Part shown: positions 8,903-54,812 of the stretch, piece after piece | Layout of the letters: the number at the start of each line of letters is the position of its first letter | Position numbering within the stretch: position 1 is the first letter of the stretch | Notes under the pieces: generated by a model | Seen by the model: only the letters and a program-made list of their open reading frames with translations | Databases searched by the model: none | What the model was told of the DNA's origin: nothing | Made by a program: the position numbers and the translations under genes | Assembly (NCBI GenBank): GCA_963666055.2 | Contig: CAXWPH010000014.1 | Coordinates: 480,001-544,000, forward strand | Direction: 5' to 3' | From: Acidobacteriota bacterium | GTDB lineage: Bacteria > Acidobacteriota > UBA890 > WLXD01 | DNA: 64,000 nucleotides

Positions 8903-10273
8903 ATGAGCACCAAGGCAATAGGAGCCCTCGTCCTCACCATGGCGGTCGCCGGCGTCGGCCTCGAGGCCGGTGAGAACGACTGGCCACAGTGGCGCGGCGT
9001 CGACCGTCTTGGGCACTGGAATGACACCGGCATCGTCGACACGCTCCCCGCCGAGCTTCGGGTCACATGGCGTGTACCGATCAACGCAGGCTACGCTGGG
9101 CCCTCGGTTGCCGACGGACGGGTCTTCGTCACGGATTGGGCTGAAGACCCCGAGTCGCGAACGATGGACGGCACCGAACGCTTGCTCGCGCTGGACGAGC
9201 AGACGGGGGAAATCCTCTGGACGCACGCGTGGCAGACCAGCTACCGGATGCTGATGGCGTCCTATGCGATCGGGCCGCGGGCCACGCCCACCATCGACGG
9301 CGACCGTGTCTATGTCCTCGGCGCCACCGGTAGGCTCTTCTGCCTGGACGTCGAGACCGGCGCGGTCCGGTGGCACATCAGCTACGCCGACGATTACGGG
9401 ACCAGCATCCCAACCTGGGGCACCACCAGCGCGCCCCTCGTCGACGGCGACATCTTGATCGCGGTGGTCGGCGCAGAACCAGATGGCATGGTTATGGCGT
9501 TCGATAAGCACACGGGTGCAGAGCGCTGGCGCGCTGTCCGGGTTAGCGGCGAAATGGGCTACAGCCAACCGGTGATTTACCAAGCGGGTGGTGTCCGTCA
9601 GTTGATCGTCTGGCATGCCTCCGCGCTCGTCTCGCTGGACCCAGACACCGGCGCGATTTACTGGGAGCAGCCGATCGAGGCCGGCGCCGGCATGGCGGTC
9701 GCGACCCCGGTCAAGGCCGGCGACTATCTCCTGGTCTCCCAGCTCCACAACGGCTCGACGATGATGCGGCTGAGCTCGGATCGACCGGCGGCGACGGTGT
9801 TGTGGCAAGGACAGAGTCGCAACCTGGACCGGCCCGAGGGGCTCCATACGACGATCAGCAGTCCGATCATCATCGGCGACTACTTCTATGGTTTGGGGGT
9901 CAACGGCGAGCTCCGTGGTCTCGACGCCCGGACCGGCGAGCGGGTGTGGGAAGACCTCACGATGAACGCCAACGAGCGTCAGCAGTGGGGAGTAATCCGG
10001 TGGGGTACGGCCTTCATGGTGCGACAGGGCGATCGCTACTTCATCAACAGCGACGAGGGGAACCTGATCATCGCGCGGTTCACGCCGCAGGGCGACCAGG
10101 AGCTCAGCCGGACGCGGCTGATCGAGCCGACTACCAGCGCCGGTATCGGTGTCAGGCGGCGCTACGACCGCCTCGTCAACTGGTCGCACCCCGCCTACGC
10201 GAACCGCCATATCGTGCACCGCAACGACCGCGAGATTCTCCGCGCCTCGCTGGCGGCGGCCGACTACGACTAA
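8903..10273 (+). CDS. PQQ-binding-like beta-propeller protein
   Basis: Signal peptide, DWPQWRG, repeated ALDxxTGxxxW, WSHPAYAN. Confidence 0.9.
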   Translation: MSTKAIGALVLTMAVAGVGLEAGENDWPQWRGVDRLGHWNDTGIVDTLPAELRVTWRVPINAGYAGPSVADGRVFVTDWAEDPESRTMDGTERLLALDEQTGEILWTHAWQTSYRMLMASYAIGPRATPTIDGDRVYVLGATGRLFCLDVETGAVRWHISYADDYGTSIPTWGTTSAPLVDGDILIAVVGAEPDGMVMAFDKHTGAERWRAVRVSGEMGYSQPVIYQAGGVRQLIVWHASALVSLDPDTGAIYWEQPIEAGAGMAVATPVKAGDYLLVSQLHNGSTMMRLSSDRPAATVLWQGQSRNLDRPEGLHTTISSPIIIGDYFYGLGVNGELRGLDARTGERVWEDLTMNANERQQWGVIRWGTAFMVRQGDRYFINSDEGNLIIARFTPQGDQELSRTRLIEPTTSAGIGVRRRYDRLVNWSHPAYANRHIVHRNDREILRASLAAADYD

Positions 10274-34834: not shown

Positions 34835-35105
34835 GTGCTCACGGTGGACCGTTGCCGGCAGCTGCTCGAAGCAACTGATCTCTCCGAACAAGCGATCGAG
34901 GAGATCCCGCGATGCCCTTTACAGCGTCGCCCGACTCACGATGGCCGAGGTTCAGCGAGCCCATGCGCGGATTCGTATCTGTGACATCGAGGTGTTGGAG
35001 GAACGTGCCGCGATCTGCGAGTTCGAGGGTGAAATGCAGCGTGACCAAGCGGAGGACGCGGCTTTGATCCAGCTCGACGCGTGGAAGGCGCGGAAACAGC
35101 AATGA
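34835..35105 (+). CDS. Small protein coupled to the recombinase, +1 frameshift at about 34907
   Basis: LTVDRCRQLL..LSEQAIEEI|RDALY..EERAAICEFEG; ATGA overlap with the recombinase. Confidence 0.6.
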
Positions 35106-36608
35106 AGAACGCTGTCATCTATTGCAGAGTTTCCACCGAGGATCAGGTGAAGAATCTGAGCCTCACGACTCAAGAGGAGTTCTGCCGACGCCATTGCGAA
35201 CGGGCTGACTTCGCGGTTCGAGAGATATTTGTCGACCGAGGGGCATCAGCGAAGACAGCGAACCGGCCGAGTTTCCAGGCGATGCTTGTATATTGCCGTC
35301 GGCACGCCCGGAGTATCGACTTCGTCGTTGTCTACCGGCTTGATCGCTTCGCCCGGAACGTCTACGACCACGTCGACGTGATCGGGCAGTTGGGCGAATG
35401 GGGGATTCTTCTCCGGTCAGTGACGGAGAGAATCGATGAAACCCCTACCGGCAAGTTCATGGCTACCATGGTCGCCGCGGTAAGCCAGTTGGACAATGAT
35501 GTTCGCCGGGAAAGGACCATCGACGGCATGCGTGCCGCACTCAAGCGAGGAAGATGGACGTTTCCGCCGCCGCTGGGGTACCTGCCGGGGAACAGGAGTC
35601 GTGGTGAAGCAAGCCTAATCTTTGACCCCGAACGGGCCGACTTGGTGCGCAGGGGCTTCGAGCTGATGGCAAAAGGTGCGCAGTCGCAGGCAGCGGTACT
35701 GGAAACCCTTACGGCTTTGGGGCTGCGAACAAAGCGTGGAAAGCTATTGCGGCCGCAAGAATTCGCGAAGTCGCTCCGGAAGCCTGTGTACGGTGGCCGG
35801 GTTGTATGCGAGAAGTTGGGCGTTGACGAACAGGGCGACTTCGAACCATTGGTCGACCAGAAGACGTACCAGCAGGTGCAGCGCCGTCTCGATGGGGGTA
35901 GACCGCGCATGAGGGACAACCCGGACTTTCCGCTTCGGCGGTTTGTTCGCTGTGAGAGATGCGAGCAGCCGGCTTACTGCCGGATGGTCACGGGGGCGCA
36001 GCGCGAGCTACGCCTACTACCGATGCCCGAAGTGCAGCCGTCCCGGCGTTAGCGCCCGTAGGCACGTTCTTGAAGAGGCTTTCATTGAGGAACTCACTTG
36101 TGTGCAACCGGACCCGCGTGTGTTGCCGCTATTCGCGGAGATTGTGCGCGACTTGTGGACCGAAGAGCGAAGCCTTGAAGACGCAGAGGCTCGCCAGCTC
36201 GCGAGGCGCATAGAAGATCGAGAGAAGGTTCGTGAGCGGCTCCTGAATGCGCTCTTGCGCGGCGCGGTCGACGACGAGACATATCGGCAGCACGACGAGA
36301 AATTGCGAAAGGAGACCGCCGAGGCGGAGTCACAGCGGATTGGTATCCGCTCTGACGAACCAGATGTTGAGGTGGTGATCGCGTTTGCTGCCGAGGTGAT
36401 GTCGGACCTTGCCGGATATTGGAACCGGGCTGAACCCTCGGCGAAGACTGCCTTGCAGAGAGTTGTGTATCCCGGAGGTTTGACTTTCGACGGCGAACGA
36501 CTTGGAACCGCCGTAACTAGCCCTGTTTTCAGCTACTTGCAGGGATTCACGGACCAGAAAAACAAATTGGCAGCCCTAACGGGATTTGAACCCGTGTCTC
36601 CGCCTTGA
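35102..36608 (+). CDS. Large serine recombinase, +1 frameshift near 35971
   Basis: YCRVST, YRLDRFAR, PLGY, zinc ribbon CERC/YYRC, coiled coil; ends TGFEPVSPP inside the tRNA. Confidence 0.92.
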
Positions 36609-36645
36609 GAGGGCGGTGTCCTGGGCCAGGCTAGACGATAGGGCC
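36568..36645 (-). tRNA. tRNA-Glu(CTC)
   Basis: Full cloverleaf: CCGCC-CTCTCAA-GGCGG anticodon arm, GGTTCAAATCC, encoded CCA. Confidence 0.95.
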
Positions 36646-43938: not shown

Positions 43939-44190
43939 CGAGATTGTCTCCCGGGTAATTCGATTGTTGCTCGGGCACGAGTCTGCGTGGCGTTGGAGGC
44001 TTGCGCAAGGGGGGCGCGGCGCGCCGCGGAAAGGTCGTCGGCTACCGCACCGGGCGGCAGCCCGATATCCTTGTAAAAAGCAGCCTCAAGCGCCCGTCCG
44101 CCGAGGCCCCACCCTTTATATTCGAGCCGTACTTCATACGTCCCGGGCGATTTGGACACGCGTTTCTCATGATGGCTGGAGTTCTTCATT

Positions 44191-47100
44191 TTGGAGCAGA
44201 ACCGCTTTGACGTCATCGTCGTAGGCGGTGGCCCTGCCGGTATCACCGCTGCAACCGCACTCGGCCGCGCCGGGTTCTCGGTACTCGTTTGCGAGGCGGC
44301 GGTGTATCCAGGAGCCGAGAACTGGTCCGGCGCCGTTTATTTCGCCGAGAACATCGAGGCTCCGGAGGCCTTCGGCCGGGCGGCGATCGAAAGCGGTCCC
44401 ATTGAGCGCCCGCTCGTCGAGCGTGGCTTCTACTCCTACAACGGCCACTCGATGTTGGGCGCGGCACTGCGCGACCCGAAGGTGTTCCGCTCCTGCTACA
44501 CGGTTCTGCGGCCGGTTTTTGACCGCTACCTCGCTGAGCTTGCCCGCGAGCACGGCGTCGTGTTGCTGTGCGAGACCACCGTCCAGAGCCTGATCCGCCA
44601 CCAGGGCCGCATCATCGGCGTGCACACCGAGCGCGGTCCGGCCTATGCCGATGTCGTGTTCCTGGCCGAGGGCGACGCCTCGCACCTGGTGACGCAGGAG
44701 GGCTACGAGCGCGTCGGTCCGGACGCCGGCGAGGGGGGATCGGAGAGCGGCCCGCACTTCCTGCAGGGCGTGAAGGAAGTCGTTTCGCTGTCGCCCGAGA
44801 TCATCGAGGAGCGTTTCGGGCTGCCGGCCGGGGGCGGCGGCGCCTACGAAATACTGCTGCGCAACGGCACACGCCATGGCCGCACCGTGCGCCTCAACAT
44901 GGGTGGCTTCATCTACACCAATCGCGACAGCTTGTCACTGGGATTCGTGCTGCCTGTCGATAACCTGGCGGAGAATTTCGACGGCGACCACAACCTGCTG
45001 ATGGAGTGGTTCAAGGGGCTGCCGGAGATCGAGCGCTGGATTGACGGCGGCGAAGTAACTTCCTACGGCGCGAAGATCATCCGCGGCGGCGGCTTGCGTG
45101 AGATCCCGCGGCTGATCGACGATGGCCTGGCGATCGGCGGCGCCGCCAGCGGCATCGGCCTCGACTTTCCGTACCCCAACTTCACCGGCCCGGCGACGGC
45201 GATGGGCCTCTTGTTCGCCGCCGCTGTGCAGAAGATCGCCGCCGACAACGGCGGTCCGGGCGGCGGTTCCGGCGACTGTCCGTTCAGCGCCGCGGCGCTC
45301 GAGCAGACCTACGTCAGGCCGCTGCAGCGAACCCACTACTACCGCAACGTCGAGCGCCTCGCCGACTGGCCCGGGTACATCGAGCGCACCCGTTTCTTCT
45401 TCGATCAGCAGGTCGATCTCGCCAATAGCGTGGCGTTCATCGTGTCGCGTCCCGACATCTCCGCGCCGCGTCGCTGGTGGGAGGCGCTGCGCCTCGAGCG
45501 CCGGCTCATCGTGACCAAGCACTTCAAGAGCGTGCTTGCTGACTTGCGGGAGAATTCCGGGGCCCTCGGCCTCGGGCGGGCCGCCCGGGAGGGTTTTGGT
45601 ATCGGCACACCCGTGCGCTGGTTGTTCAACACCGTCTCAGCCTTGTTGCCGAGCCGCCGCACATCCATTGGCGGCGACAAGTCAACGGGTGTTGCGATCG
45701 CCACCACGCCCGGTGGCGGCGAGTTTCGTGTGACGTATCGGGTCCTGGCGGGCGCCGAGGTGCCCGGTCGTTTGCCGCTCGTTGCCCGGTGGTACTGGAA
45801 ACGCTTCGGCCCGGCGATGGGCGATGCCTTCGCCGACGTCTACACGAACGACGACGAGCCGCTGGATACCAAGTTGCCGCGTGCCTTGGGTCGTTTGATC
45901 GACCAGTTTTCCGCGTGGGATGCGGTGCTGTCCGTCGTCTCCTTGGTGGCGGGAGCCCTGACCTTGCTGGCCCAGTCTTCGATCGAGTGGTTCCAGTACG
46001 CCGTGCTGAAGAAGGATCTGTCGGCGTTTCGCGAGCAGTTCGTCGCCCGGTTGCTCGATGACAATCGCCGCCGTATCCGCCTCGATGACGACGCCGTGGA
46101 GATCAGGACGTCCTACGAGCACAAGCTCGGCACGATTCGCTATCGCGTGGGGCAGCATTCGCACATCAAAGTGCTGTGGCCCGACGATCTTGCGGCGCGT
46201 GGTGAGCTGGTCGACTCGCCGCTGTGGAACGTCTGCCCCGCCAAGGTCTACGAAGTCGATCGGAATCCGCGCGGCATGCCCGGCGTCGTCGTCAACTTCG
46301 ACAACTGTGTCAAGTGTGAGACTTGCTGGCGCGCCACCCCCGACGTGCACTGGAGTCGGGCAACGCAGCAGCGGCTGATCTACGAGACCTATACGCCGAC
46401 CCATGCCGAGCTGCGCAACTACTTGCTGACGCGGACCGAGCCGGTGGCACGTTTGCGACGGCTGCCGAGCTACTGGGAGGCGTACTGGTCGGGATCTTCC
46501 GACTTGTCGACGAGCTCCGAACAAGCGGCGCTTCTGACGGGTGTCGAGGCCGAGCTGCGTCGCTTTAGCGCGGCGCTGGACGGCTACTCACAGGCGCTCG
46601 GCGATTCGCCGCCGGCGCTGGAGCAAGGCGAGCGCTACTACCTGGAGGAACTGCTGGCCTCGGCGACGCGGCGCTTCGAAGCCGCGCGGGCGCTGTGGCA
46701 GACGGAGGCGCTGGAATCGCTGCGCGCAGCAGCCGACGGTGCGGCGGCAGTGTGGGCCGACGCCGCCGAAAGGGTGGAGGAATTGGCGCGGCACGCTGCT
46801 GCCAAGCGCTATTTCTGGTCGGACGTGGTGGGCAAGCAACTTCGCGAGCACCATGTCGAGGGACTTCTCGTTTTACTGCGGCGTGAAGCTGCCGGTGTCG
46901 ATCAACTCGCTCCGCAGCACGGGTTGCCTTCCGAACCGTGCGAGGCATGGTCGTGGATCGCCGGTTGGCCGGCCGTCGAATGCCGGCCGCTGGCATTCGA
47001 AACGCACCGCAAAACGATTCGTGACTGGTGCGACGCGCACGTCGACTCCGCCGTTCTCAACCGGCTCGAGGAGGGGCTGCCGATCAGCACGGAACTTCGC

Positions 47101-50100
47101 GACTGGCTTGCCGCGGAGCTCAGGACGGCGGTTGCGTCGGGGCGCGATGGCGAAACCTGGTCGGACCCGGCAAACCGCGCCACGCCGGCGACGCCCCGCT
47201 ACGGGCAGCGAGACGTATTGCTCGAGGAGCTCTCTGCGTGTGATCCGTCGTTGGCGGCACTGGCCGCCCAGCATCTGCTCGCCTGTGATCTGCTCGACGG
47301 TGTTGCGGCAGCCGATCCGACACTGATTGACAACCTGCGCGCCGGACGGCAGCTGGCGACTGTCGTATCGCAGGGAGCCATTTGCAACGAGCTGATCGTC
47401 TCGGGCAAGGCGGCGGAGGGTGTTGCCGCTGTGGCAGCCGAAGCGGGTGTCGAGCTTCACGGCGTAGCACCGTTGGTTGCTACGGCGTTGGCCGATTGGT
47501 TGCTCGTGGTGCGTGACAATCGCGGCTACCTAGTGCCGATCGATGACCCGGGAGTGAAGCTCGAGGACGTGGGTTGCATCGGGCTGGTCGGCGCCGCCGT
47601 GCGGCGGGTGATCTTCGACGGTTGCGTTGTACCGCCGGAACACCTCTTCGATGTTCCTTCGATCGACGAAAGGTCTGCCTTTACGGCGCCGGCCGTCGGC
47701 GAGCCGTTTGCTGATCTTCTGCGAATCGGCGTGCTCGATCACCTGGCAATCGTGCGGGGCGCGGGCACCTACTTGACGCAGCGTGCGCGTGAGCATGCCG
47801 CCACTCGGGTTCAGTTCCCCGATTCTTTCCAGGACGAGGCCGGCCGGGACACGATCGCCAAGTTCGGCGCCGTGAAGCGACTCATGGCCGAGATGGAAGC
47901 GCAGCGCATCCTGGTGGAGTCGCTCAGTATCATCGATCCGGGACCGACCGACGACCCGTGGATTGGTGCCGCGGTGCGCAAGGTCCTCGCCGCCGACGCC
48001 TTCGGGCCGAATCGAGGCTCGTTGGGCTACAACTGCGGCCAGGTGTTCGCTGGCACGGCATTTTCCGAAGACGACTGCATCGCCAAGTACTACCGCGACA
48101 GCAGTCCGTTCCGCTTCTTGCTCGCCCACGACGACGCGCTGCGTGTCGAGATCGGCCGCCGCCGACTTGCAGCAGTACGGCAGGGCAACTCTTTGGTCCC
48201 GCTGTCGCCGGGCGAGGCGGCGTGGCTCGGTGCCCTGGGTGACGAAGCTCCTTTGGCCGCCGCGGTGCCGCGCTGGGAGGCAGCCTGCGCCAAGATCGAC
48301 GGGTGGGCCGATAGCGTCGCGGCGGCCGACGAACCAATGGCCGAGCTCCTGTGCTTTCAAGCCGGCGGCGTGGTTGCGTCGGCGTTGGCTGTCAAGGTCT
48401 GTCTGTTGCGCACCGGTTGGCGTCTCGAGTCCGGTTTGCCTGCCCAGGCGACGCGCGCAGCGACCAACCTTCTCAACGACGAGTTCTGTGCCGCCGTTCC
48501 GGGGGTCATCGACGATGCTCAACTTCTTGCTGAAACTCTCGAAGTCGGTGACGAGACGATCATCCACGGCGATTTCGAGCCCGCCGCCGACATCGCCGAC
48601 GCGGAGCCCTATCGCGCCGTGCTCGAGACCGATCACGGTGCCGATTCCGGAGAATGGCTGGTCGGAGGTTTCGACGGCGAGCGACTCCGCTACGTGCCCG
48701 AGATCCTGTGGAACGACCCGGAGCTAGGCGCGTTTCGCGACAGGGTGGAGGCGGAGCAGCGACGGCGCTACGTCGAGCCACGCTTCGACGGGCTGACGTA
48801 CAACCGGTATCTCGAGAAGCTGCACATCGTGCCGCGCGATGATCTCGACTACCTGGTTGACGAAGGCTTCCTGCGCATGCCGATCCCGACGTCGCTCGGC
48901 GGTGAAGGGGTACTGAAGGCGCTCTACTACATCGTCTGCGAGATGACGGGTCGCTACGGCGACGCGGCGCTGTCGCTGGCCATAATGGCCAACACGAGTA
49001 TCGGCACGACGCCCATGCTCCTCGGTCTCAAACAGGACCTGCCGCGCGCCCGCGCCGAGCTCGAGAGGGTCAAGGGCGACCCGACGCTGCTCGGCGAGAT
49101 ACACGACGGCCTCGACAAGCTGATCGCCGGCATGGCGCGTCCCGATCTCGAGGCGCTGCAGCGTGACTACCTGGCGCTGATGGAGCTGGTCAAGGCGCGC
49201 ATCGTCAAGTCGAGCGTGCTCAAGTACATCGGCGGCGGCTTCCTGCGCGCTTTCTTCGCCGCCGGACAGGCCGGCGAGCAGCGTGACCTCGACAGCTTTG
49301 CCGACAACCTGCGGCAAGCCCGCGAGCGTCTCGACGAGATCCTCGAAGGTGTCGAGGACCGGCTCATCGAGTACCCGCGCCGCGAGCGGGCGCACGAGCT
49401 GTTCTTGAAGATGATCTCGGCCGGCTACATCTCGGCCTTCGCGCTCACCGAGCCGACTGCAGGATCCGACTCGGGCGGCGTGAAGACATCGGCGCGCCTT
49501 GATCGGCGGCGCGTCTATTGCGACGACGACGGCGTCCTGTACTTCTGGCTCGACGATAAGGCCGAAAGCGAACGGCGCAACCTCCTCGACGCCGACCGGG
49601 TTGGGTTCGACTTCGATCGCCACAAGATGCTCTATCGCTTCTCAGAAGACGCCGAAGCTGCGGAGATCAACCACGACGCCTTCGACTACGACAGCCGGGA
49701 GCTGCCGAGCAAGTGGCGCACCTATCGTCACGGTGATCGCGACGTTGCGTTCACCGACATCGCGCAGATTCGTGAGGATGAGGCCGGTGACCTCTGGTAC
49801 GAGTACTGGGAGCTCAACGGCGTCAAGATGTGGATCACCAACGGGCGCTTCGCCCATTGCTTCGCGCTGTACGCCACGACCGAGCCGGAGGGCGTTACCG
49901 GTTTCATGGTCGACCGCCACGCCGAGGGCATGGTGGTCGGCGCCGACGAAGAGAAGCTCGGCCAGCGTGCCTCGCCCACCAACGAGTTGTCGCTCACCGG
50001 AGTGCGCGTGCCGCGCGAGTGCATCATCGGTTTCCGCGGCCGCGGCCAGGTCAACGCCCTCGAAACGCTGAATACCGGGCGTACCGGCTTGGCGGTGACG

Positions 50101-52941
50101 GCGCGCTCCGGTATCCAGGAAATACTCGAGGACGCAGTGGCGTTCTTCAGCGAGACGCGACCCAGCGCGTACCCGAAGCAGGGAGCGCCGGCGACCGCGC
50201 TGCAGACCTACTGGATGGGACGCCTTACCGAGGAGCTCATCGGCACCGCCGCCGTTGCCAACGAGCTGATCGGCCTGTTCGACCATCCACTAACCAAGAA
50301 CGTGCGCATGGAGTCAGCGATCGGCAAGTACTACGGCAGCGAGGCGCTGCACGACGGCATCGAGTGGATGGAGCGATTGCGTGGGCTCGATGGCTTGACC
50401 CACCGCCATCGCATCGAGAAGACGCGCCGTGACGCGCGGGTGCTCAACATCTACGAAGGCACCAACGAAGTTCAGCGCTACCTGTTGTTGCGCGACCTGG
50501 CGCAGCGCGTGCTGCCGGCGTGGAAGGCGGCTCAGAAAGATAGCGACGGCGCGGAAGTAGACACGGCCGGCGCGCATCCCGATCTGCGCCGGCAGCTAGA
50601 GGACGTCAAGCAGCGCCTGATGTCACGGCTGCAGGACGCCGACGCGGCGTTCGGCCAACTCATCTGGTCGAACGTCAATCTACAGCCGTGCTTCTTTTGG
50701 CTGGCCGAGATTTCCGGCCTCATCAAGGTGATGGACGCGGTGCTGTATCGCCTCGAATGGCTGGCCGCCCACGACGTGGCCGCCGTGTACCGCGAGCGCC
50801 TCGAGCGCGCTTCGCGCCTGGCATTTCGCCGTTGCGGGGTGCGCATCGACACGCTCGAGCGTTTGTTCACTGCTGCCCACGCCTATCTGCAGGACGGGCG
50901 CTACCCGCCGGATGTGCAGCTCGGGTTCCTGGCTCTCGACGAGGCCGGCGTCATCGCCGAGGCGTGGGGGGTCATGCCCGCGTCGCGTCGCCCGCAGCCG
51001 GAACTACCGCCGCTGGCCGACGATGTGCGCATCGTCGTACTCATCAAGTCGGTGCCCTCGGTTGCCCCGCGGCCGCGGGTCGGCCATGAGTCGTTCGAGG
51101 AATCGCTGCACTCAATCGACCAGGTCGACGTCCGATCGCTGCAGATGGCGCTCGATCTCAAGCGCCGAGATCCGGCGCGGGTAACCGTGGCCGCTTATAC
51201 GCTGGCTGGGGCCACCGGCAACGAGGCACTCCGCCAGGCATTGGCGATGGGAGCCGACGAAGCGCAGATTCTGGTGGGTGGCGAGACGGTACCGGTTCAA
51301 GACCCCGCCCGGGTGGCGCGCATTGTCGGAGGTTGGCTGCAGGACAAGCCGGCCGACATCGTGTTCTGCGGCGCCGCCGCTTCGGACACCTCGCAAGGTA
51401 TCGTCGGCCCCGCACTCGCCGGTGCTCTGGGCCGTGAGTTTCTCGCCGGCGTTACGGAAGTGCGCTGGAGTCCGGCGCCGGAGCCGCTGTTGCACGTCGG
51501 CGCAAGCGGTTGGCAAGGTCACCACATCGATGTGCCGGTGCCCTGCGTCATCGCGACGGCGGCGCACGCCGAGCACGCCGAGGCCGAATACCGGGTCGGT
51601 GGTTTCGTGGCCGCGTTAGCGGCAGCAATCGGCAGGCTCGAGGCCCGCGATTCGGAAGTCGGTGCTTTGCGTGTTGCCCACGTGCCTCGTGCCATTGCCG
51701 GCGGCGGCACTACGGTTCAGATCGCCCGCACGCCGGAGGATGCCGCCGATGTGTTGTTGCGCACGTCCGGGCTGACCGATGCGGTGTCGAGTTCCGAGGC
51801 CGATTCCTACGCCGGCGATCCGGCCGGCTTCGGCCAGCAGCCGGAAGACCCGTCTCCTGTCTGCCTGTTCGTTTGCGCGCCTGTGGCCGCCACCGACATG
51901 GAATCGTCCACGCAGGCGTCCCTGGAATCGGCTGCTCGTCTGGCGGCCGGCGTCGACTTGCCGCTGGACGTGGTGTTGCCGGTGACGGGTCCCGAGGCTC
52001 TCGCTGCGGGAGTGGGGCAGGTGATTGCCGATGTCGGGCCACGGCGCATCTATGTGCTGGAGCAGGCCGACATCGATCGGCTCGGCTACCGAGGTCACAT
52101 CGAGTGGCTCGAGGAGTTCTGGGGCATGTACCGTGGCCAGCCCGAATGGCTGCTCGGGCCGGAATGGGCACGCACGCTGTTCGCCTACTTCGGCGGCCAG
52201 GGACCGCCCGCCGTAGAAAGGAGCTGGTCCTGGTTCGGTGTCGAGCGGGTGAGCAATGGTGGACCGGAGATCCGACTCGGCACATCCATTCTCGACGGTG
52301 CGGCTCGCGCCGTCGCGACGGTGCCGAAAACAGGCGGCTTGCGCATCGTCACGTTTGCCGGCGCCGCCGCAATCGATCTGCCGGACATCGCGAGCTCCGC
52401 TGATGCGACGCAAGTGTTTGCCTACCAACCGCGGCTCGACTACGACCTCGCGTCCGATCCGGCGGCGGCTCTGATGAGTCGCCTGGGCGGCGGAGAGCTG
52501 ACGCTGCAGGCGGCCGAATACATCGTCGATTTCGGCTATGGCGCCGGGGGTCGGGAGGGCCTCGCGGAACTCGCCGAGCCGCTCTTGAGCATCCTGGCAG
52601 ACGAGCTCGGGCTGCCCAACGCGATGATCGGCGCGACGCGCAAGGTCACGCAAGATCTCGAAGTGCTGCCCATGGATCGCCAGATCGGACAGACCGGTGT
52701 GCGTGTACACCCCAAGGTGCTGGTAGCGCTGGCAGTTTCAGGCGCCCCGCAACACGTCGACTGGATCGACGACGAGACTGTCATCCTCGCCTTCAACGTC
52801 GACCCCGACGCGCCCCTGATGAGGCTCAACGAGCAGCGCCCGAATCCGGTGGTTCATCCGATCGTGGGTGACGTTTGGGAAACCATCCCGCGGTTTATGG
52901 CCGCCCTGCGCGCGGGCGAGCGGGCGCAAGGATCGCGATGA
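44191..52941 (+). CDS. 2916-aa fusion: FixC-like flavoprotein / FixX ferredoxin / two acyl-CoA dehydrogenase domains / EtfB / EtfA
   Basis: GGGPAG; CPAKVY..NCVKCETC; QF..IAKFGAV..YYRD; FALTEP..GSD, KMWITNG, IYEGTNE; ALAMGAD, FCG..D..GIVG; RQIGQTG..SGAPQH. Confidence 0.92.
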   Translation: MEQNRFDVIVVGGGPAGITAATALGRAGFSVLVCEAAVYPGAENWSGAVYFAENIEAPEAFGRAAIESGPIERPLVERGFYSYNGHSMLGAALRDPKVFRSCYTVLRPVFDRYLAELAREHGVVLLCETTVQSLIRHQGRIIGVHTERGPAYADVVFLAEGDASHLVTQEGYERVGPDAGEGGSESGPHFLQGVKEVVSLSPEIIEERFGLPAGGGGAYEILLRNGTRHGRTVRLNMGGFIYTNRDSLSLGFVLPVDNLAENFDGDHNLLMEWFKGLPEIERWIDGGEVTSYGAKIIRGGGLREIPRLIDDGLAIGGAASGIGLDFPYPNFTGPATAMGLLFAAAVQKIAADNGGPGGGSGDCPFSAAALEQTYVRPLQRTHYYRNVERLADWPGYIERTRFFFDQQVDLANSVAFIVSRPDISAPRRWWEALRLERRLIVTKHFKSVLADLRENSGALGLGRAAREGFGIGTPVRWLFNTVSALLPSRRTSIGGDKSTGVAIATTPGGGEFRVTYRVLAGAEVPGRLPLVARWYWKRFGPAMGDAFADVYTNDDEPLDTKLPRALGRLIDQFSAWDAVLSVVSLVAGALTLLAQSSIEWFQYAVLKKDLSAFREQFVARLLDDNRRRIRLDDDAVEIRTSYEHKLGTIRYRVGQHSHIKVLWPDDLAARGELVDSPLWNVCPAKVYEVDRNPRGMPGVVVNFDNCVKCETCWRATPDVHWSRATQQRLIYETYTPTHAELRNYLLTRTEPVARLRRLPSYWEAYWSGSSDLSTSSEQAALLTGVEAELRRFSAALDGYSQALGDSPPALEQGERYYLEELLASATRRFEAARALWQTEALESLRAAADGAAAVWADAAERVEELARHAAAKRYFWSDVVGKQLREHHVEGLLVLLRREAAGVDQLAPQHGLPSEPCEAWSWIAGWPAVECRPLAFETHRKTIRDWCDAHVDSAVLNRLEEGLPISTELRDWLAAELRTAVASGRDGETWSDPANRATPATPRYGQRDVLLEELSACDPSLAALAAQHLLACDLLDGVAAADPTLIDNLRAGRQLATVVSQGAICNELIVSGKAAEGVAAVAAEAGVELHGVAPLVATALADWLLVVRDNRGYLVPIDDPGVKLEDVGCIGLVGAAVRRVIFDGCVVPPEHLFDVPSIDERSAFTAPAVGEPFADLLRIGVLDHLAIVRGAGTYLTQRAREHAATRVQFPDSFQDEAGRDTIAKFGAVKRLMAEMEAQRILVESLSIIDPGPTDDPWIGAAVRKVLAADAFGPNRGSLGYNCGQVFAGTAFSEDDCIAKYYRDSSPFRFLLAHDDALRVEIGRRRLAAVRQGNSLVPLSPGEAAWLGALGDEAPLAAAVPRWEAACAKIDGWADSVAAADEPMAELLCFQAGGVVASALAVKVCLLRTGWRLESGLPAQATRAATNLLNDEFCAAVPGVIDDAQLLAETLEVGDETIIHGDFEPAADIADAEPYRAVLETDHGADSGEWLVGGFDGERLRYVPEILWNDPELGAFRDRVEAEQRRRYVEPRFDGLTYNRYLEKLHIVPRDDLDYLVDEGFLRMPIPTSLGGEGVLKALYYIVCEMTGRYGDAALSLAIMANTSIGTTPMLLGLKQDLPRARAELERVKGDPTLLGEIHDGLDKLIAGMARPDLEALQRDYLALMELVKARIVKSSVLKYIGGGFLRAFFAAGQAGEQRDLDSFADNLRQARERLDEILEGVEDRLIEYPRRERAHELFLKMISAGYISAFALTEPTAGSDSGGVKTSARLDRRRVYCDDDGVLYFWLDDKAESERRNLLDADRVGFDFDRHKMLYRFSEDAEAAEINHDAFDYDSRELPSKWRTYRHGDRDVAFTDIAQIREDEAGDLWYEYWELNGVKMWITNGRFAHCFALYATTEPEGVTGFMVDRHAEGMVVGADEEKLGQRASPTNELSLTGVRVPRECIIGFRGRGQVNALETLNTGRTGLAVTARSGIQEILEDAVAFFSETRPSAYPKQGAPATALQTYWMGRLTEELIGTAAVANELIGLFDHPLTKNVRMESAIGKYYGSEALHDGIEWMERLRGLDGLTHRHRIEKTRRDARVLNIYEGTNEVQRYLLLRDLAQRVLPAWKAAQKDSDGAEVDTAGAHPDLRRQLEDVKQRLMSRLQDADAAFGQLIWSNVNLQPCFFWLAEISGLIKVMDAVLYRLEWLAAHDVAAVYRERLERASRLAFRRCGVRIDTLERLFTAAHAYLQDGRYPPDVQLGFLALDEAGVIAEAWGVMPASRRPQPELPPLADDVRIVVLIKSVPSVAPRPRVGHESFEESLHSIDQVDVRSLQMALDLKRRDPARVTVAAYTLAGATGNEALRQALAMGADEAQILVGGETVPVQDPARVARIVGGWLQDKPADIVFCGAAASDTSQGIVGPALAGALGREFLAGVTEVRWSPAPEPLLHVGASGWQGHHIDVPVPCVIATAAHAEHAEAEYRVGGFVAALAAAIGRLEARDSEVGALRVAHVPRAIAGGGTTVQIARTPEDAADVLLRTSGLTDAVSSSEADSYAGDPAGFGQQPEDPSPVCLFVCAPVAATDMESSTQASLESAARLAAGVDLPLDVVLPVTGPEALAAGVGQVIADVGPRRIYVLEQADIDRLGYRGHIEWLEEFWGMYRGQPEWLLGPEWARTLFAYFGGQGPPAVERSWSWFGVERVSNGGPEIRLGTSILDGAARAVATVPKTGGLRIVTFAGAAAIDLPDIASSADATQVFAYQPRLDYDLASDPAAALMSRLGGGELTLQAAEYIVDFGYGAGGREGLAELAEPLLSILADELGLPNAMIGATRKVTQDLEVLPMDRQIGQTGVRVHPKVLVALAVSGAPQHVDWIDDETVILAFNVDPDAPLMRLNEQRPNPVVHPIVGDVWETIPRFMAALRAGERAQGSR

Positions 52942-53786: not shown

Positions 53787-54812
53787 ATGTTTCTCGCCCG
53801 CCCGACGCCGATCCTGACTCTCGTCATCTGGTCGCTGGTCACCGGTGGCGCGACGCCGCCGGCCGCGCCGGTGACCAAGGCGCAGTACAGCGAGGTGTTC
53901 GGGTATCAACTCGGGGAGGAGCGCCATTACATCCTCGAGCCCGACAAGGCGCTGCGCCCGGGGGAGCACGGCATGTGGAGCATTCGCTTCGCAGACGTCG
54001 CCGGTGAAGGCGAGGACCTGAGGTTCATCTTCAATCTGGAGCACGAGCGCAGCGAGCTGATTCGGGACATGTTCGGCGGCCTTTCCGGCCGCCTTCAGAC
54101 AATCCGCGTCGAGTCCGTCCTTACGCTCAACGCTTTCGGGTTCCCGCTGCGTGTGGTGATGAGCGAGCAGCACGAAGTCGCCGGCGAACGCCGCACCGAG
54201 AGCGACATGCGAACCACGATCTTCACGTTCGACGGCGAGCGCTACACCAAGGCCGTGCGCATCGAAGGCCGCGAGTGGCGCTTTCCGATCAGCATCGCCA
54301 AGAACAAGGATCTCAACCTCGAAAGCCGAACCGGTCTGTACACGTTTCTGCCCTCGGCGCTGCGCTGTATGGGCCAGCCGGCGATGATCGGCAGGCCGCG
54401 GCGCTGTGAAGAGGGCGACATCACGTTCGCCAACCCGGGGTTGTTGAGCATCGTGATTCCGGTTCTGCGGGAGGAGAAGGTCAACAAGCGCGAGTTCCTG
54501 TTCTTCAAGCCGGCGGGCGTGGGCACGATGCCGGCCGGGCTGATGGACATGAGCGGCTGGGTGCGACGCGAACGCGACACGCAGCGCAGCATCTCGCGCT
54601 ACTTCGACAAGATGACCATCGAGTTCGAAGCGTACGAAGAGGGCGTCGAGATGGGCGTGCGCACGGTGAGCGCGTGGCGAGTCGAAGCCAGCGGCTCGAT
54701 GCGCAAGTTCTGGGTCGACGCCGAAGACCGGGTCATCAAGGTCGAGCTCGACCCGCACCCGCGCACCAACCAGAAGCGCTGGATCCGCATGCTGTACCCT
54801 TCGGAGTACTGA
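53787..54812 (+). CDS. Secreted hypothetical protein
   Basis: Signal peptide, beta-rich, ends LDPHPRTNQKRWIRMLYPSEY. Confidence 0.8.
   Translation: MFLARPTPILTLVIWSLVTGGATPPAAPVTKAQYSEVFGYQLGEERHYILEPDKALRPGEHGMWSIRFADVAGEGEDLRFIFNLEHERSELIRDMFGGLSGRLQTIRVESVLTLNAFGFPLRVVMSEQHEVAGERRTESDMRTTIFTFDGERYTKAVRIEGREWRFPISIAKNKDLNLESRTGLYTFLPSALRCMGQPAMIGRPRRCEEGDITFANPGLLSIVIPVLREEKVNKREFLFFKPAGVGTMPAGLMDMSGWVRRERDTQRSISRYFDKMTIEFEAYEEGVEMGVRTVSAWRVEASGSMRKFWVDAEDRVIKVELDPHPRTNQKRWIRMLYPSEY

Follow-up and report, generated by a model that had tools for sequence, protein, structure and literature searches.

In mitochondria and most bacteria, contacts of the electron-transfer flavoprotein (ETF) with its dehydrogenase and with its quinone reductase are transient. 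The classical chain consists of three separate enzymes, an acyl-CoA dehydrogenase (ACAD), ETF, and ETF:quinone oxidoreductase (ETF-QO), and the diffusible, AMP-binding ETF serves many dehydrogenases; we know of no structure that holds an ACAD, ETF, and quinone reductase together. Here, we analyze a gene at positions 44191–52941 of a 64,000-nucleotide stretch of DNA (the window; positions 480,001 to 544,000 of contig CAXWPH010000014.1, assembly GCA_963666055.2) from an Acidobacteriota bacterium. The gene encodes one chain of 2916 residues, referred to below as the giant protein, in which a FixC-like FAD domain, a ferredoxin-like cluster domain, two ACAD folds (ACAD-1 and ACAD-2), and EtfB-like and EtfA-like modules follow one another; such parts usually occur as four or five individual proteins.

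The giant protein shares its inferred chemistry with the classical chain (2gmh, 1efv/1efp, VLCAD 3b96/8ca1, ACAD9 8phe), as well as the single-cluster motif of the ETF-QO type, the VLCAD-like C-terminal extensions of the ACADs, and a conserved ETF FAD site. It differs in being fused, in having a flavoprotein part nearer to FixC than to ETF-QO (E 1e-52 versus 6e-20), and in an EtfB loop that is often deleted. Like EtfABCX/FixABCX of Thermotoga maritima (7koe), it has a FixC-type FAD domain, a ferredoxin-like partner, EtfB and EtfA modules, and a likely menaquinone acceptor (PMC10734219). The T. maritima complex, as described there, is built of four separate subunits without an ACAD; it takes electrons from NADH and contains a bifurcating FAD and two 4Fe-4S clusters. 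The giant protein, by contrast, is a single chain with one cluster motif and an ACAD pair as donor.

A natural fusion of two ACADs is presumably represented by FadE34 (ChsE3). In the mycobacterial α2β2 heteromers ChsE4–ChsE5 and ChsE1–ChsE2, one subunit holds the flavin ring and has the catalytic Glu, and the other holds the ADP-ribose part of the FAD (PMC11153573). Sequence complementarity and a joint model suggest that the giant protein likewise splits one FAD site over a catalytic and a noncatalytic ACAD fold. The ChsE subunits, however, come from separate genes and act on steroid substrates, whereas the two halves considered here lie in one chain and are nearer to the VLCAD type; the pair probably arose independently of ChsE. 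Fusions involving ETF have also been described, namely SaETF, a monomeric, bifurcating EtfB–EtfA fusion (PMC12042025), and the BCR of Fusobacterium nucleatum, a Bcd–EtfA(domain II)–rubredoxin protein whose electrons go on to a flavodiiron protein and O2 (PMC12288474). As in the giant protein, ETF subunits are fused to each other or an ETF FAD domain is joined to an ACAD as a private relay, but both are without a quinone reductase, a cluster domain, and a pseudo-ACAD. The literature searched, in which subscription journals were thinly covered and supplements lay outside the search, yielded smaller fusions only and no description of the six-module architecture. The giant protein is thus a conserved protein of known parts, with chemistry that is probably known and a form undescribed in that literature.

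An earlier note on this DNA had described one uninterrupted 8.75-kb open reading frame (ORF) with six ordered modules, and both points hold. The ORF (44191–52941, plus strand, ∼318 kDa) begins with a TTG at a position common to the aligned relatives, has no internal stop codon, and shows a GC content at third codon positions of 0.76 to 0.85 along its length. The signature motifs lie where they had been reported, with the CPA motif of C682 at 46234, CxxCxxC at 46306–46326, QIGQTG at 52681, and SGAPQH at 52738. Pfam models matched FAD_oxidored (residues 7–148), the N, M, and C parts of Acyl-CoA_dh (1540–1610, 1871–1937, and 1950–2102), ETF (2307–2426), and ETF_alpha (2772–2856). The same note had suggested looking for sequence support across the domain junctions and for full-length homologs in other genomes, and both were found. 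Three contigs of run X2 (study P1), which may be the source sample, tile the ORF without any difference, and four contigs of run X3 (study P2) tile it with 23 substitutions and no gaps; the contigs join via overlaps of 23 to 27 nt, and the whole gene is spanned by no single contig. Neither tiling introduces an indel, which, together with the full-length relatives, rules out an assembly or read-through artifact. Among the runs listed as containing the gene, none was an RNA run, and in run X19, which was guessed to be RNA, nothing but short, divergent pieces of the gene was found. The modules are listed in Table 1.

Table 1. Features of the giant gene, in window coordinates, with the basis of each assignment
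Feature	Position	Strand	Basis
GGAG, likely ribosome-binding site	44178..44181	+	Read from the sequence; 9 nt 5′ of TTG
Whole ORF, 2916 aa	44191..52941	+	No stop; indel-free tiling by contigs of two studies
FixC/EtfC-like FAD quinone-reductase domain, aa 1–420	44191..45450	+	7koe_C E 1.3e-52; Z 24.2
Helical region, aa 421–640, likely membrane-surface anchor	45451..46110	+	Hydropathy and model helices
Single 4Fe-4S ferredoxin-like domain (C682, C706, C709, C712)	46111..46395	+	Four Cys in 242/242
Four-helix bundle linker, aa 736–930	46396..46980	+	Model helices 775–898
ACAD-1, putative pseudo acyl-CoA dehydrogenase, aa 935–1460	46993..48570	+	Profile matches, motif content
ACAD-2, putative catalytic acyl-CoA dehydrogenase, aa 1511–2260	48721..50970	+	Pfam, motifs, model
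Degenerate EtfB-like domain, aa 2270–2530	50998..51780	+	No bifurcation motifs
EtfA-like: domain I, aa 2550–2745; FAD-binding domain II, aa 2765–2910	51838..52920	+	Conserved FAD motifs in domain II

Searches with the window protein gave 432 matches at E ≤ 1e-20 among 8000 scored candidates (1603–5103 residues), and with a distant member as query, 468 of 7984 candidates matched; the best 120 matches were listed in each case. An alignment of 242 full-length proteins (2297–3036 residues) was compiled after removal of duplicates and of proteins without either end motif; additional sets comprised 140 relatives for column checks, 258 proteins for ETF motifs, and 263 proteins of at least 2250 residues for motif counts, the last including one unrelated fusion, P0387. 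The same module order is kept in at least 242 distinct full-length relatives. By source name, family members belong to Acidobacteriota, Verrucomicrobiota, Planctomycetota, Gemmatimonadota, Nitrospirota, and Pseudomonadota (a betaproteobacterium and an Acidiferrobacter metagenome-assembled genome), and all named source records among the matches are metagenome-assembled. A strong match was obtained in 22 of 25 relatives from the order of the host, 11 of them as one long open frame, but in none of 15 other genomes of the phylum. Elsewhere, the protein is rare (1/251 genomes in the phylum of G041 and 2/201 in that of G043; both counts include the centre genomes, and the second search had a stricter first look).

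The N-terminal domain is nearest to EtfC/FixC of T. maritima (7koe_C, E 1.3e-52, versus 6e-20 for ETF-QO), and 134 of its 420 columns are at least 90% conserved. An AlphaFold2 model of residues 2–900 (pLDDT 87, pTM 0.90) matched 7koe_C with an rmsd of 2.1 Å over 425 residues (Z 24.2) and ETF-QO 2gmh_B with Z 19.4 over residues 1–734, cluster domain included. Geranylgeranyl reductases and halogenases come next, at Z 19.3 to 18, so that the FixC/ETF-QO fold alone is not specific; the PRK10015 and FixC models matched this domain below cut-off. In the cluster domain, the four invariant Cys listed in Table 1 are the only conserved ones, and they align with the single cluster motif of ETF-QO 2gmh (residues 526–570); the Pfam model Fer4_ETF_QO (residues 672–714) scored 23.7 bits, slightly below its cut-off of 24. 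EtfX of T. maritima has two 4Fe-4S clusters (PMC10734219), and none of the 263 long proteins has two CxxCxxC motifs. The domain had previously been called a FixX-like ferredoxin; a two-cluster FixX is excluded in favor of one 4Fe-4S motif as in ETF-QO, but the label is still fair because the separate FixX-like protein encoded in this genome likewise has a single motif. This protein belongs to a fixC–fixX pair (L092 8510–10133, G000:C12) with no adjoining etf genes; its contig carries an etfBA pair at a distance of ∼29 kb.

Between the FAD and cluster domains, residues 421–640 are poorly conserved and helical, with amphipathic helices and one hydrophobic helix (residues 573–598), and 131/140 relatives have a 19-residue window with a mean hydropathy above 1.6 in this region. 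We take it for a likely membrane-surface anchor, a role preferred because a single membrane crossing would part the cluster from its flavin. The four-helix bundle that follows has only 2 of 195 conserved columns, and an Atlas search with it returned no credible family match.

The two ACAD folds have undergone different losses. ACAD-1 has no Pfam match. When its family profile was compared with solved structures, however, the ACADs 2dvl (E 2e-12), 2z1q, and VLCAD matched, and ACAD-1 carries a VLCAD-like C-terminal helical extension. It keeps RxQF..KFG and Q..GG..E..RD, with R1206, Q1208, K1224, Q1284, G1288, and R1302 invariant (242/242), and is without TEP..GSD and YEGT; in profile alignments against 2dvl and 1buc, the FAD loop of the solved ACADs falls on a deletion. 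ACAD-2, conversely, carries ALTEPTAGSD, KMWITNG, and IYEGTNE, which align to CarC and VLCAD; S1759, D1760, W1881, Y2088, and E2089 are found in 242/242 and T1753 and E1754 in 241/242 sequences. E2089 occupies the J–K loop position of the MCAD base (PMC11153573). The RxQFG stretch of ACAD-2 is deleted relative to solved ACADs, and GGxG is altered. Among the 263 long proteins, exactly one TEP..GSD occurs in 260 and exactly one YEGTN in 261. In ACAD homo-oligomers, the RxQFG and GGxG elements complete the FAD site of the neighboring subunit. Because the losses are complementary, the sequences, along with the model described below, suggest that ACAD-1 and ACAD-2 likely form a pseudo-dimer with one shared FAD site, either within one chain or between two chains. 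Of the two ACADs proposed earlier, both are present as folds, whereas only ACAD-2 has the FAD loop and the catalytic Glu.

An AlphaFold2 model of the two folds as one chain (residues 935–2125, 1191 residues) reached a pLDDT of 85.6 and a pTM of 0.86. Such scores suggest that the folds pack in a defined way, but could also stem from resemblance to solved ACAD dimers. The top fold matches of the model were ACAD9 and VLCAD; the nearest solved ACADs are of the VLCAD, ACAD9, CarC, and Bcd types, the top sequence and fold matches listed include no ChsE chain, and the best NCBIfam ACAD match was FadE of the Bacillus type, far under cut-off. ACAD-2 has a C-terminal helical extension and two inserts, one helical (residues 1621–1735) and one beta-rich (residues 1771–1868). 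Both inserts (window 49051–49395 and 49501–49794) are family-wide and confidently modeled; an Atlas search with them gave no credible family match, and they may be where the ETF head or the membrane module docks. The window protein has Ala rather than Gly at position 1287 (48049–48051) in the Q..GG motif of ACAD-1, the sole case in 140 relatives, a change that might make this copy bind FAD less tightly.

At the ETF end, conservation is concentrated in domain II of EtfA, where 40 of 146 columns are conserved, compared with 1 of 196 in domain I and 10 of 261 in EtfB. R2817, Q2831, Q2834, G2836, S2850, H2855, N2869, and D2871 occur in 138 to 139 of 140 relatives, and domain II also has NxD and GD motifs. 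EtfB shows a mean pairwise identity of 0.31, versus 0.54 to 0.62 for the other modules; its nucleotide/AMP loop is divergent but present in the window protein and gapped in 50/140 relatives. EtfB and EtfA domain I likely serve mainly as a scaffold.

We consider it probable that the giant protein is a self-contained, membrane-attached acyl-CoA:menaquinone oxidoreductase for the FadE step of straight-chain β-oxidation. Module order, intact FAD sites in FixC and EtfA, and the presence or absence of other motifs are read from the sequence, and from these we infer the pseudo-dimer, electron route, membrane binding, direction, and substrate. Acyl-CoA would be oxidized at a single ACAD site, with ACAD-2 holding the flavin ring and the substrate, E2089 acting as the base, and ACAD-1 holding the ADP end of the same FAD. 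Domain II of EtfA would swing between the ACAD FAD and the 4Fe-4S cluster, carrying single electrons, which would pass from the cluster to the FixC FAD and on to menaquinone with no free carrier proteins. The predicted content per chain is three FAD and one [4Fe-4S] cluster, and neither use of NADH nor reduction of ferredoxin is expected. The earlier note had spoken of a covalently tethered oxidation-to-respiration unit; a conserved single-chain ACAD–ETF–quinone reductase is confirmed, and tethered working in vivo is what we infer from it. We lean slightly toward the wider claim that the family is a widespread, undescribed one-chain entry of fatty acids into respiration, with a fused pseudo-dimeric ACAD of one active site, an ETF head held captive and free of nucleotide, a 4Fe-4S/FAD quinone reductase of its own, and a tether that aids a near-equilibrium step.

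Gene context and host gene content bear on this proposal. Among 90 loci examined for neighbors, many with short flanks, fad genes lie directly 5′ of the giant gene in three: fadD-fadA-fadB with a 3-nt gap (L087), fadD-fadB with a 4-nt overlap (L050), and fadD with a 36-nt gap (L072). In L043, fadA-fadB lie ∼4 kb downstream, and L046 has a thiolase fragment at a similar place. In a genome without the giant gene (G027, L113), an ordinary 583-codon ACAD occupies the slot after fadD-fadA-fadB. Genes of the futalosine pathway to menaquinone were found in four of five tested hosts, and none of the five had menB over cut-off or a ubiB match; the presence of the former and the lack of ubiB make menaquinone the probable acceptor. 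Genome G012 carries fadD-fadA-fadB, a free EtfA, and the futalosine genes.

Several observations weigh against the proposed role. The three loci with adjacent fad genes are a small share of the 90, and in most clades, the window's included, the neighbors are unrelated; beyond the few loci with fad genes, no operon is conserved across clades. No ACAD accompanies fadAB in any of 15 giant-bearing loci, yet the same holds for 5/6 giant-free control loci, which makes this a weak test. Although the three order-mates without the fusion gave no match to fadB, four giant-bearing genomes (G011, G013, G019, and G023) have no close fadB ortholog either, with matches of 36 to 37% or none; most genomes in this comparison are incomplete. 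S1595 and M1599, on a helix that we take to line the acyl cavity, stand where VLCAD has two glycines, a difference that bears on the chain length. Four of the five tested hosts encode a free EtfA that could accept the electrons instead; since these hosts keep it, the fused ETF is likely private to the chain. Lastly, with the butyryl-CoA couple at −10 mV (PMC12288474) and menaquinone at −74 mV (PMC10734219), electron flow from butyryl-CoA to menaquinone is slightly uphill at standard state (∼60 mV). The step would thus run near equilibrium and need the pull of product hydration and an oxidized quinone pool, and the tether may help.

The same relay could serve another acyl-CoA, such as a branched-chain, dicarboxylic, aromatic, or steroid-derived one, which we regard as unlikely. 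One-FAD pseudo-dimeric ACADs are known from steroid side-chain breakdown (PMC11153573, PMC6678751), the two large ACAD-2 inserts are without an Atlas match, and the distribution is patchy, as the counts of 1/251 and 2/201 indicate. The only recurring functional neighbors, however, are generic FadD, FadI/FadA-like, and FadJ/FadB-like proteins, no steroid- or aromatic-degradation genes occur among 77 scanned neighbor proteins, and the solved ACADs closest to the pair are not of the ChsE type.

Reverse operation in vivo, with the relay acting as a menaquinol:enoyl-CoA reductase and enoyl-CoA serving as electron sink, seems quite improbable to us. The standard potentials given above favor this direction by ∼60 mV, and the tested hosts seem to make menaquinone only, but the linkage to an acyl-CoA ligase and to degradative genes of the FadJ/FadI type speaks for oxidation. 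Menaquinone-using aerobes, moreover, run β-oxidation into menaquinone.

Oxidation in one working chain also has to be weighed against a polyprotein or loose fusion, in which the chain is cleaved, or electrons pass between chains or via free EtfAB, so that the tether serves co-expression only. Linkers are poorly conserved, hosts own free EtfAB and FixCX genes, and a shorter sibling family has kept FixC, the cluster, and helical parts without ACAD catalysis or the EtfA FAD domain. Nevertheless, module distances co-vary over the 242 proteins (Spearman 0.50–0.81), although shared ancestry alone would do the same, and decayed ETF scaffold parts would be expected if the tether had replaced partner recognition. 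Breaks in the gene were also surveyed. Of 63 metagenome loci, 31 have an ORF of at least 2300 residues, and in 20 the contig ends within the gene. In the other 12, breaks fall at various positions, mostly as overlapping frames that resemble frameshifts (four breaks were viewed), and no recurring natural split point was seen. We therefore consider a loose fusion very unlikely. As a separate observation, the copy in G004 (G004:C2:2704223–2704232; L094 ∼10190–10250) is frameshifted by a ∼22-nt tandem duplication after codon ∼170, which may be an assembly error or a recent pseudogene. Two loci considered as possible eukaryotic transcripts, L053 and L056, were rejected, as L053 continues into another bacterial-type frame and neither has an added N-terminal extension.

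Electron bifurcation, which the earlier note had considered possible, can be judged from defined motifs. Bifurcating ETFs carry RPxFGG, with R140 in T. maritima lying beside the bifurcating FAD and required for bifurcation, as well as GxxSPTxV and RxGV in the small subunit (PMC10734219); DGDTAQVG and GADT..T stretches were additionally taken as features seen in solved bifurcating EtfBs. Among 258 proteins, RPxFGG, GxxSPTxV, and G[AS]DTxAT were each absent, RPxYGG occurred once, D[GS]DT in three, and RxGV anywhere in the ETF region in 35. The window protein has none of the small-subunit motifs RxGV, GxxSPTxV, DGDTAQVG, or GADT..T, and T2698 stands at the R140-equivalent position, a column that holds Arg in 14/140 relatives, mostly proteins of a Gemmatimonadota clade, with the rest of the motif absent. 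Since the bifurcation motifs are missing, the R140 column is Thr, and the EtfB loop is often deleted, the fused ETF appears to keep its electron-transfer flavin only. A fused, NADH-oxidizing and ferredoxin-reducing FixABCX/Etf–Bcd complex is therefore exceedingly improbable, even with a FixC domain nearest to T. maritima EtfC, bifurcating ETFs among the best PDB matches of the ETF part, and Arg at the R140 column in that one clade, given the absence of these motifs, the nucleotide-loop deletions (50/140), and one cluster instead of two.

If the proposed acyl-CoA:menaquinone oxidoreductase is real, a 318-kDa chain with one ACAD site, an ETF flavin, a cluster, and a quinone site would allow the swinging-domain model to be tested and offer a direct view of the ternary arrangement of ACAD, ETF, and quinone reductase. 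It would further reveal how acyl-CoA oxidation can be driven with menaquinone, a low-potential quinone, as acceptor. In terms of annotation, several hundred proteins now labeled only as ACAD, FAD-binding protein, or ETF-quinone oxidoreductase in Acidobacteriota, Nitrospirota, Verrucomicrobiota, Planctomycetota, Gemmatimonadota, and Pseudomonadota, mostly uncultured, would each represent a complete FadE-plus-ETF-plus-reductase unit.

The shorter siblings (P0358, P0369, P0379, P0364, and P0378; 1409–1713 residues) keep FixC, the four cluster Cys, and helical ACAD remnants, with an EtfB remnant present or absent, but have lost the entire catalytic ACAD core, the ACAD-1 residues that bind FAD, and the FAD domain of EtfA. 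They may be stand-alone quinone reductases on a leftover scaffold, partners of a full-length copy, or decaying paralogs. Two other large proteins fall outside the family: P0387 (2974 residues), an unrelated fusion, joins methylmalonyl-CoA mutase-like, B12-binding, VLCAD-type ACAD, citrate-lyase/HpcH, and MaoC dehydratase parts, and P0403 (1727 residues) has two tandem ACAD units. In the window, the giant gene is flanked by genes for an opposite-strand amidohydrolase, a Lon N-terminal domain protein, a prephenate dehydrogenase-like protein, and a protein with a metallo-β-lactamase fold. A 341-residue ORF without a Pfam match (53787–54812) also lies 3′ of the giant gene in ∼10 loci of the host's order, where it is sometimes doubled.

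The window contig itself changes kinship along its length. Positions 1–12 kb match a genome of the same genus (G002) at 91 to 94%, positions 36.5–64 kb are syntenic with G012, of another family, at 86 to 97%, and the mobile-element region between these parts ends at a tRNA-Glu (36568–36645), which no contig among those listed bridges. Sister relationships pair the window protein with that of G012 and a second copy in the window's genome (G000:C15:996472–1005138) with that of G002. Probably, the window contig is either a chimera or contains a large block acquired by transfer, and because of this switch, statements on other genes of G000 may concern a different organism. The second copy may be an artifact; a true duplication is doubtful, since the right part of the window matches a genome of another family, and the C15 copy was not used as evidence. 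The mobile-element region (12083–36608) contains ORFs for an IS6-like transposase, a tyrosine integrase, primase-like and terminase-like proteins, and type I restriction-modification genes, names that we presume from features of the ORF translations. A serine recombinase is spread over two frames (35081–36052 and 35943–36608), and run X2 differs from the window by one base at 35971.

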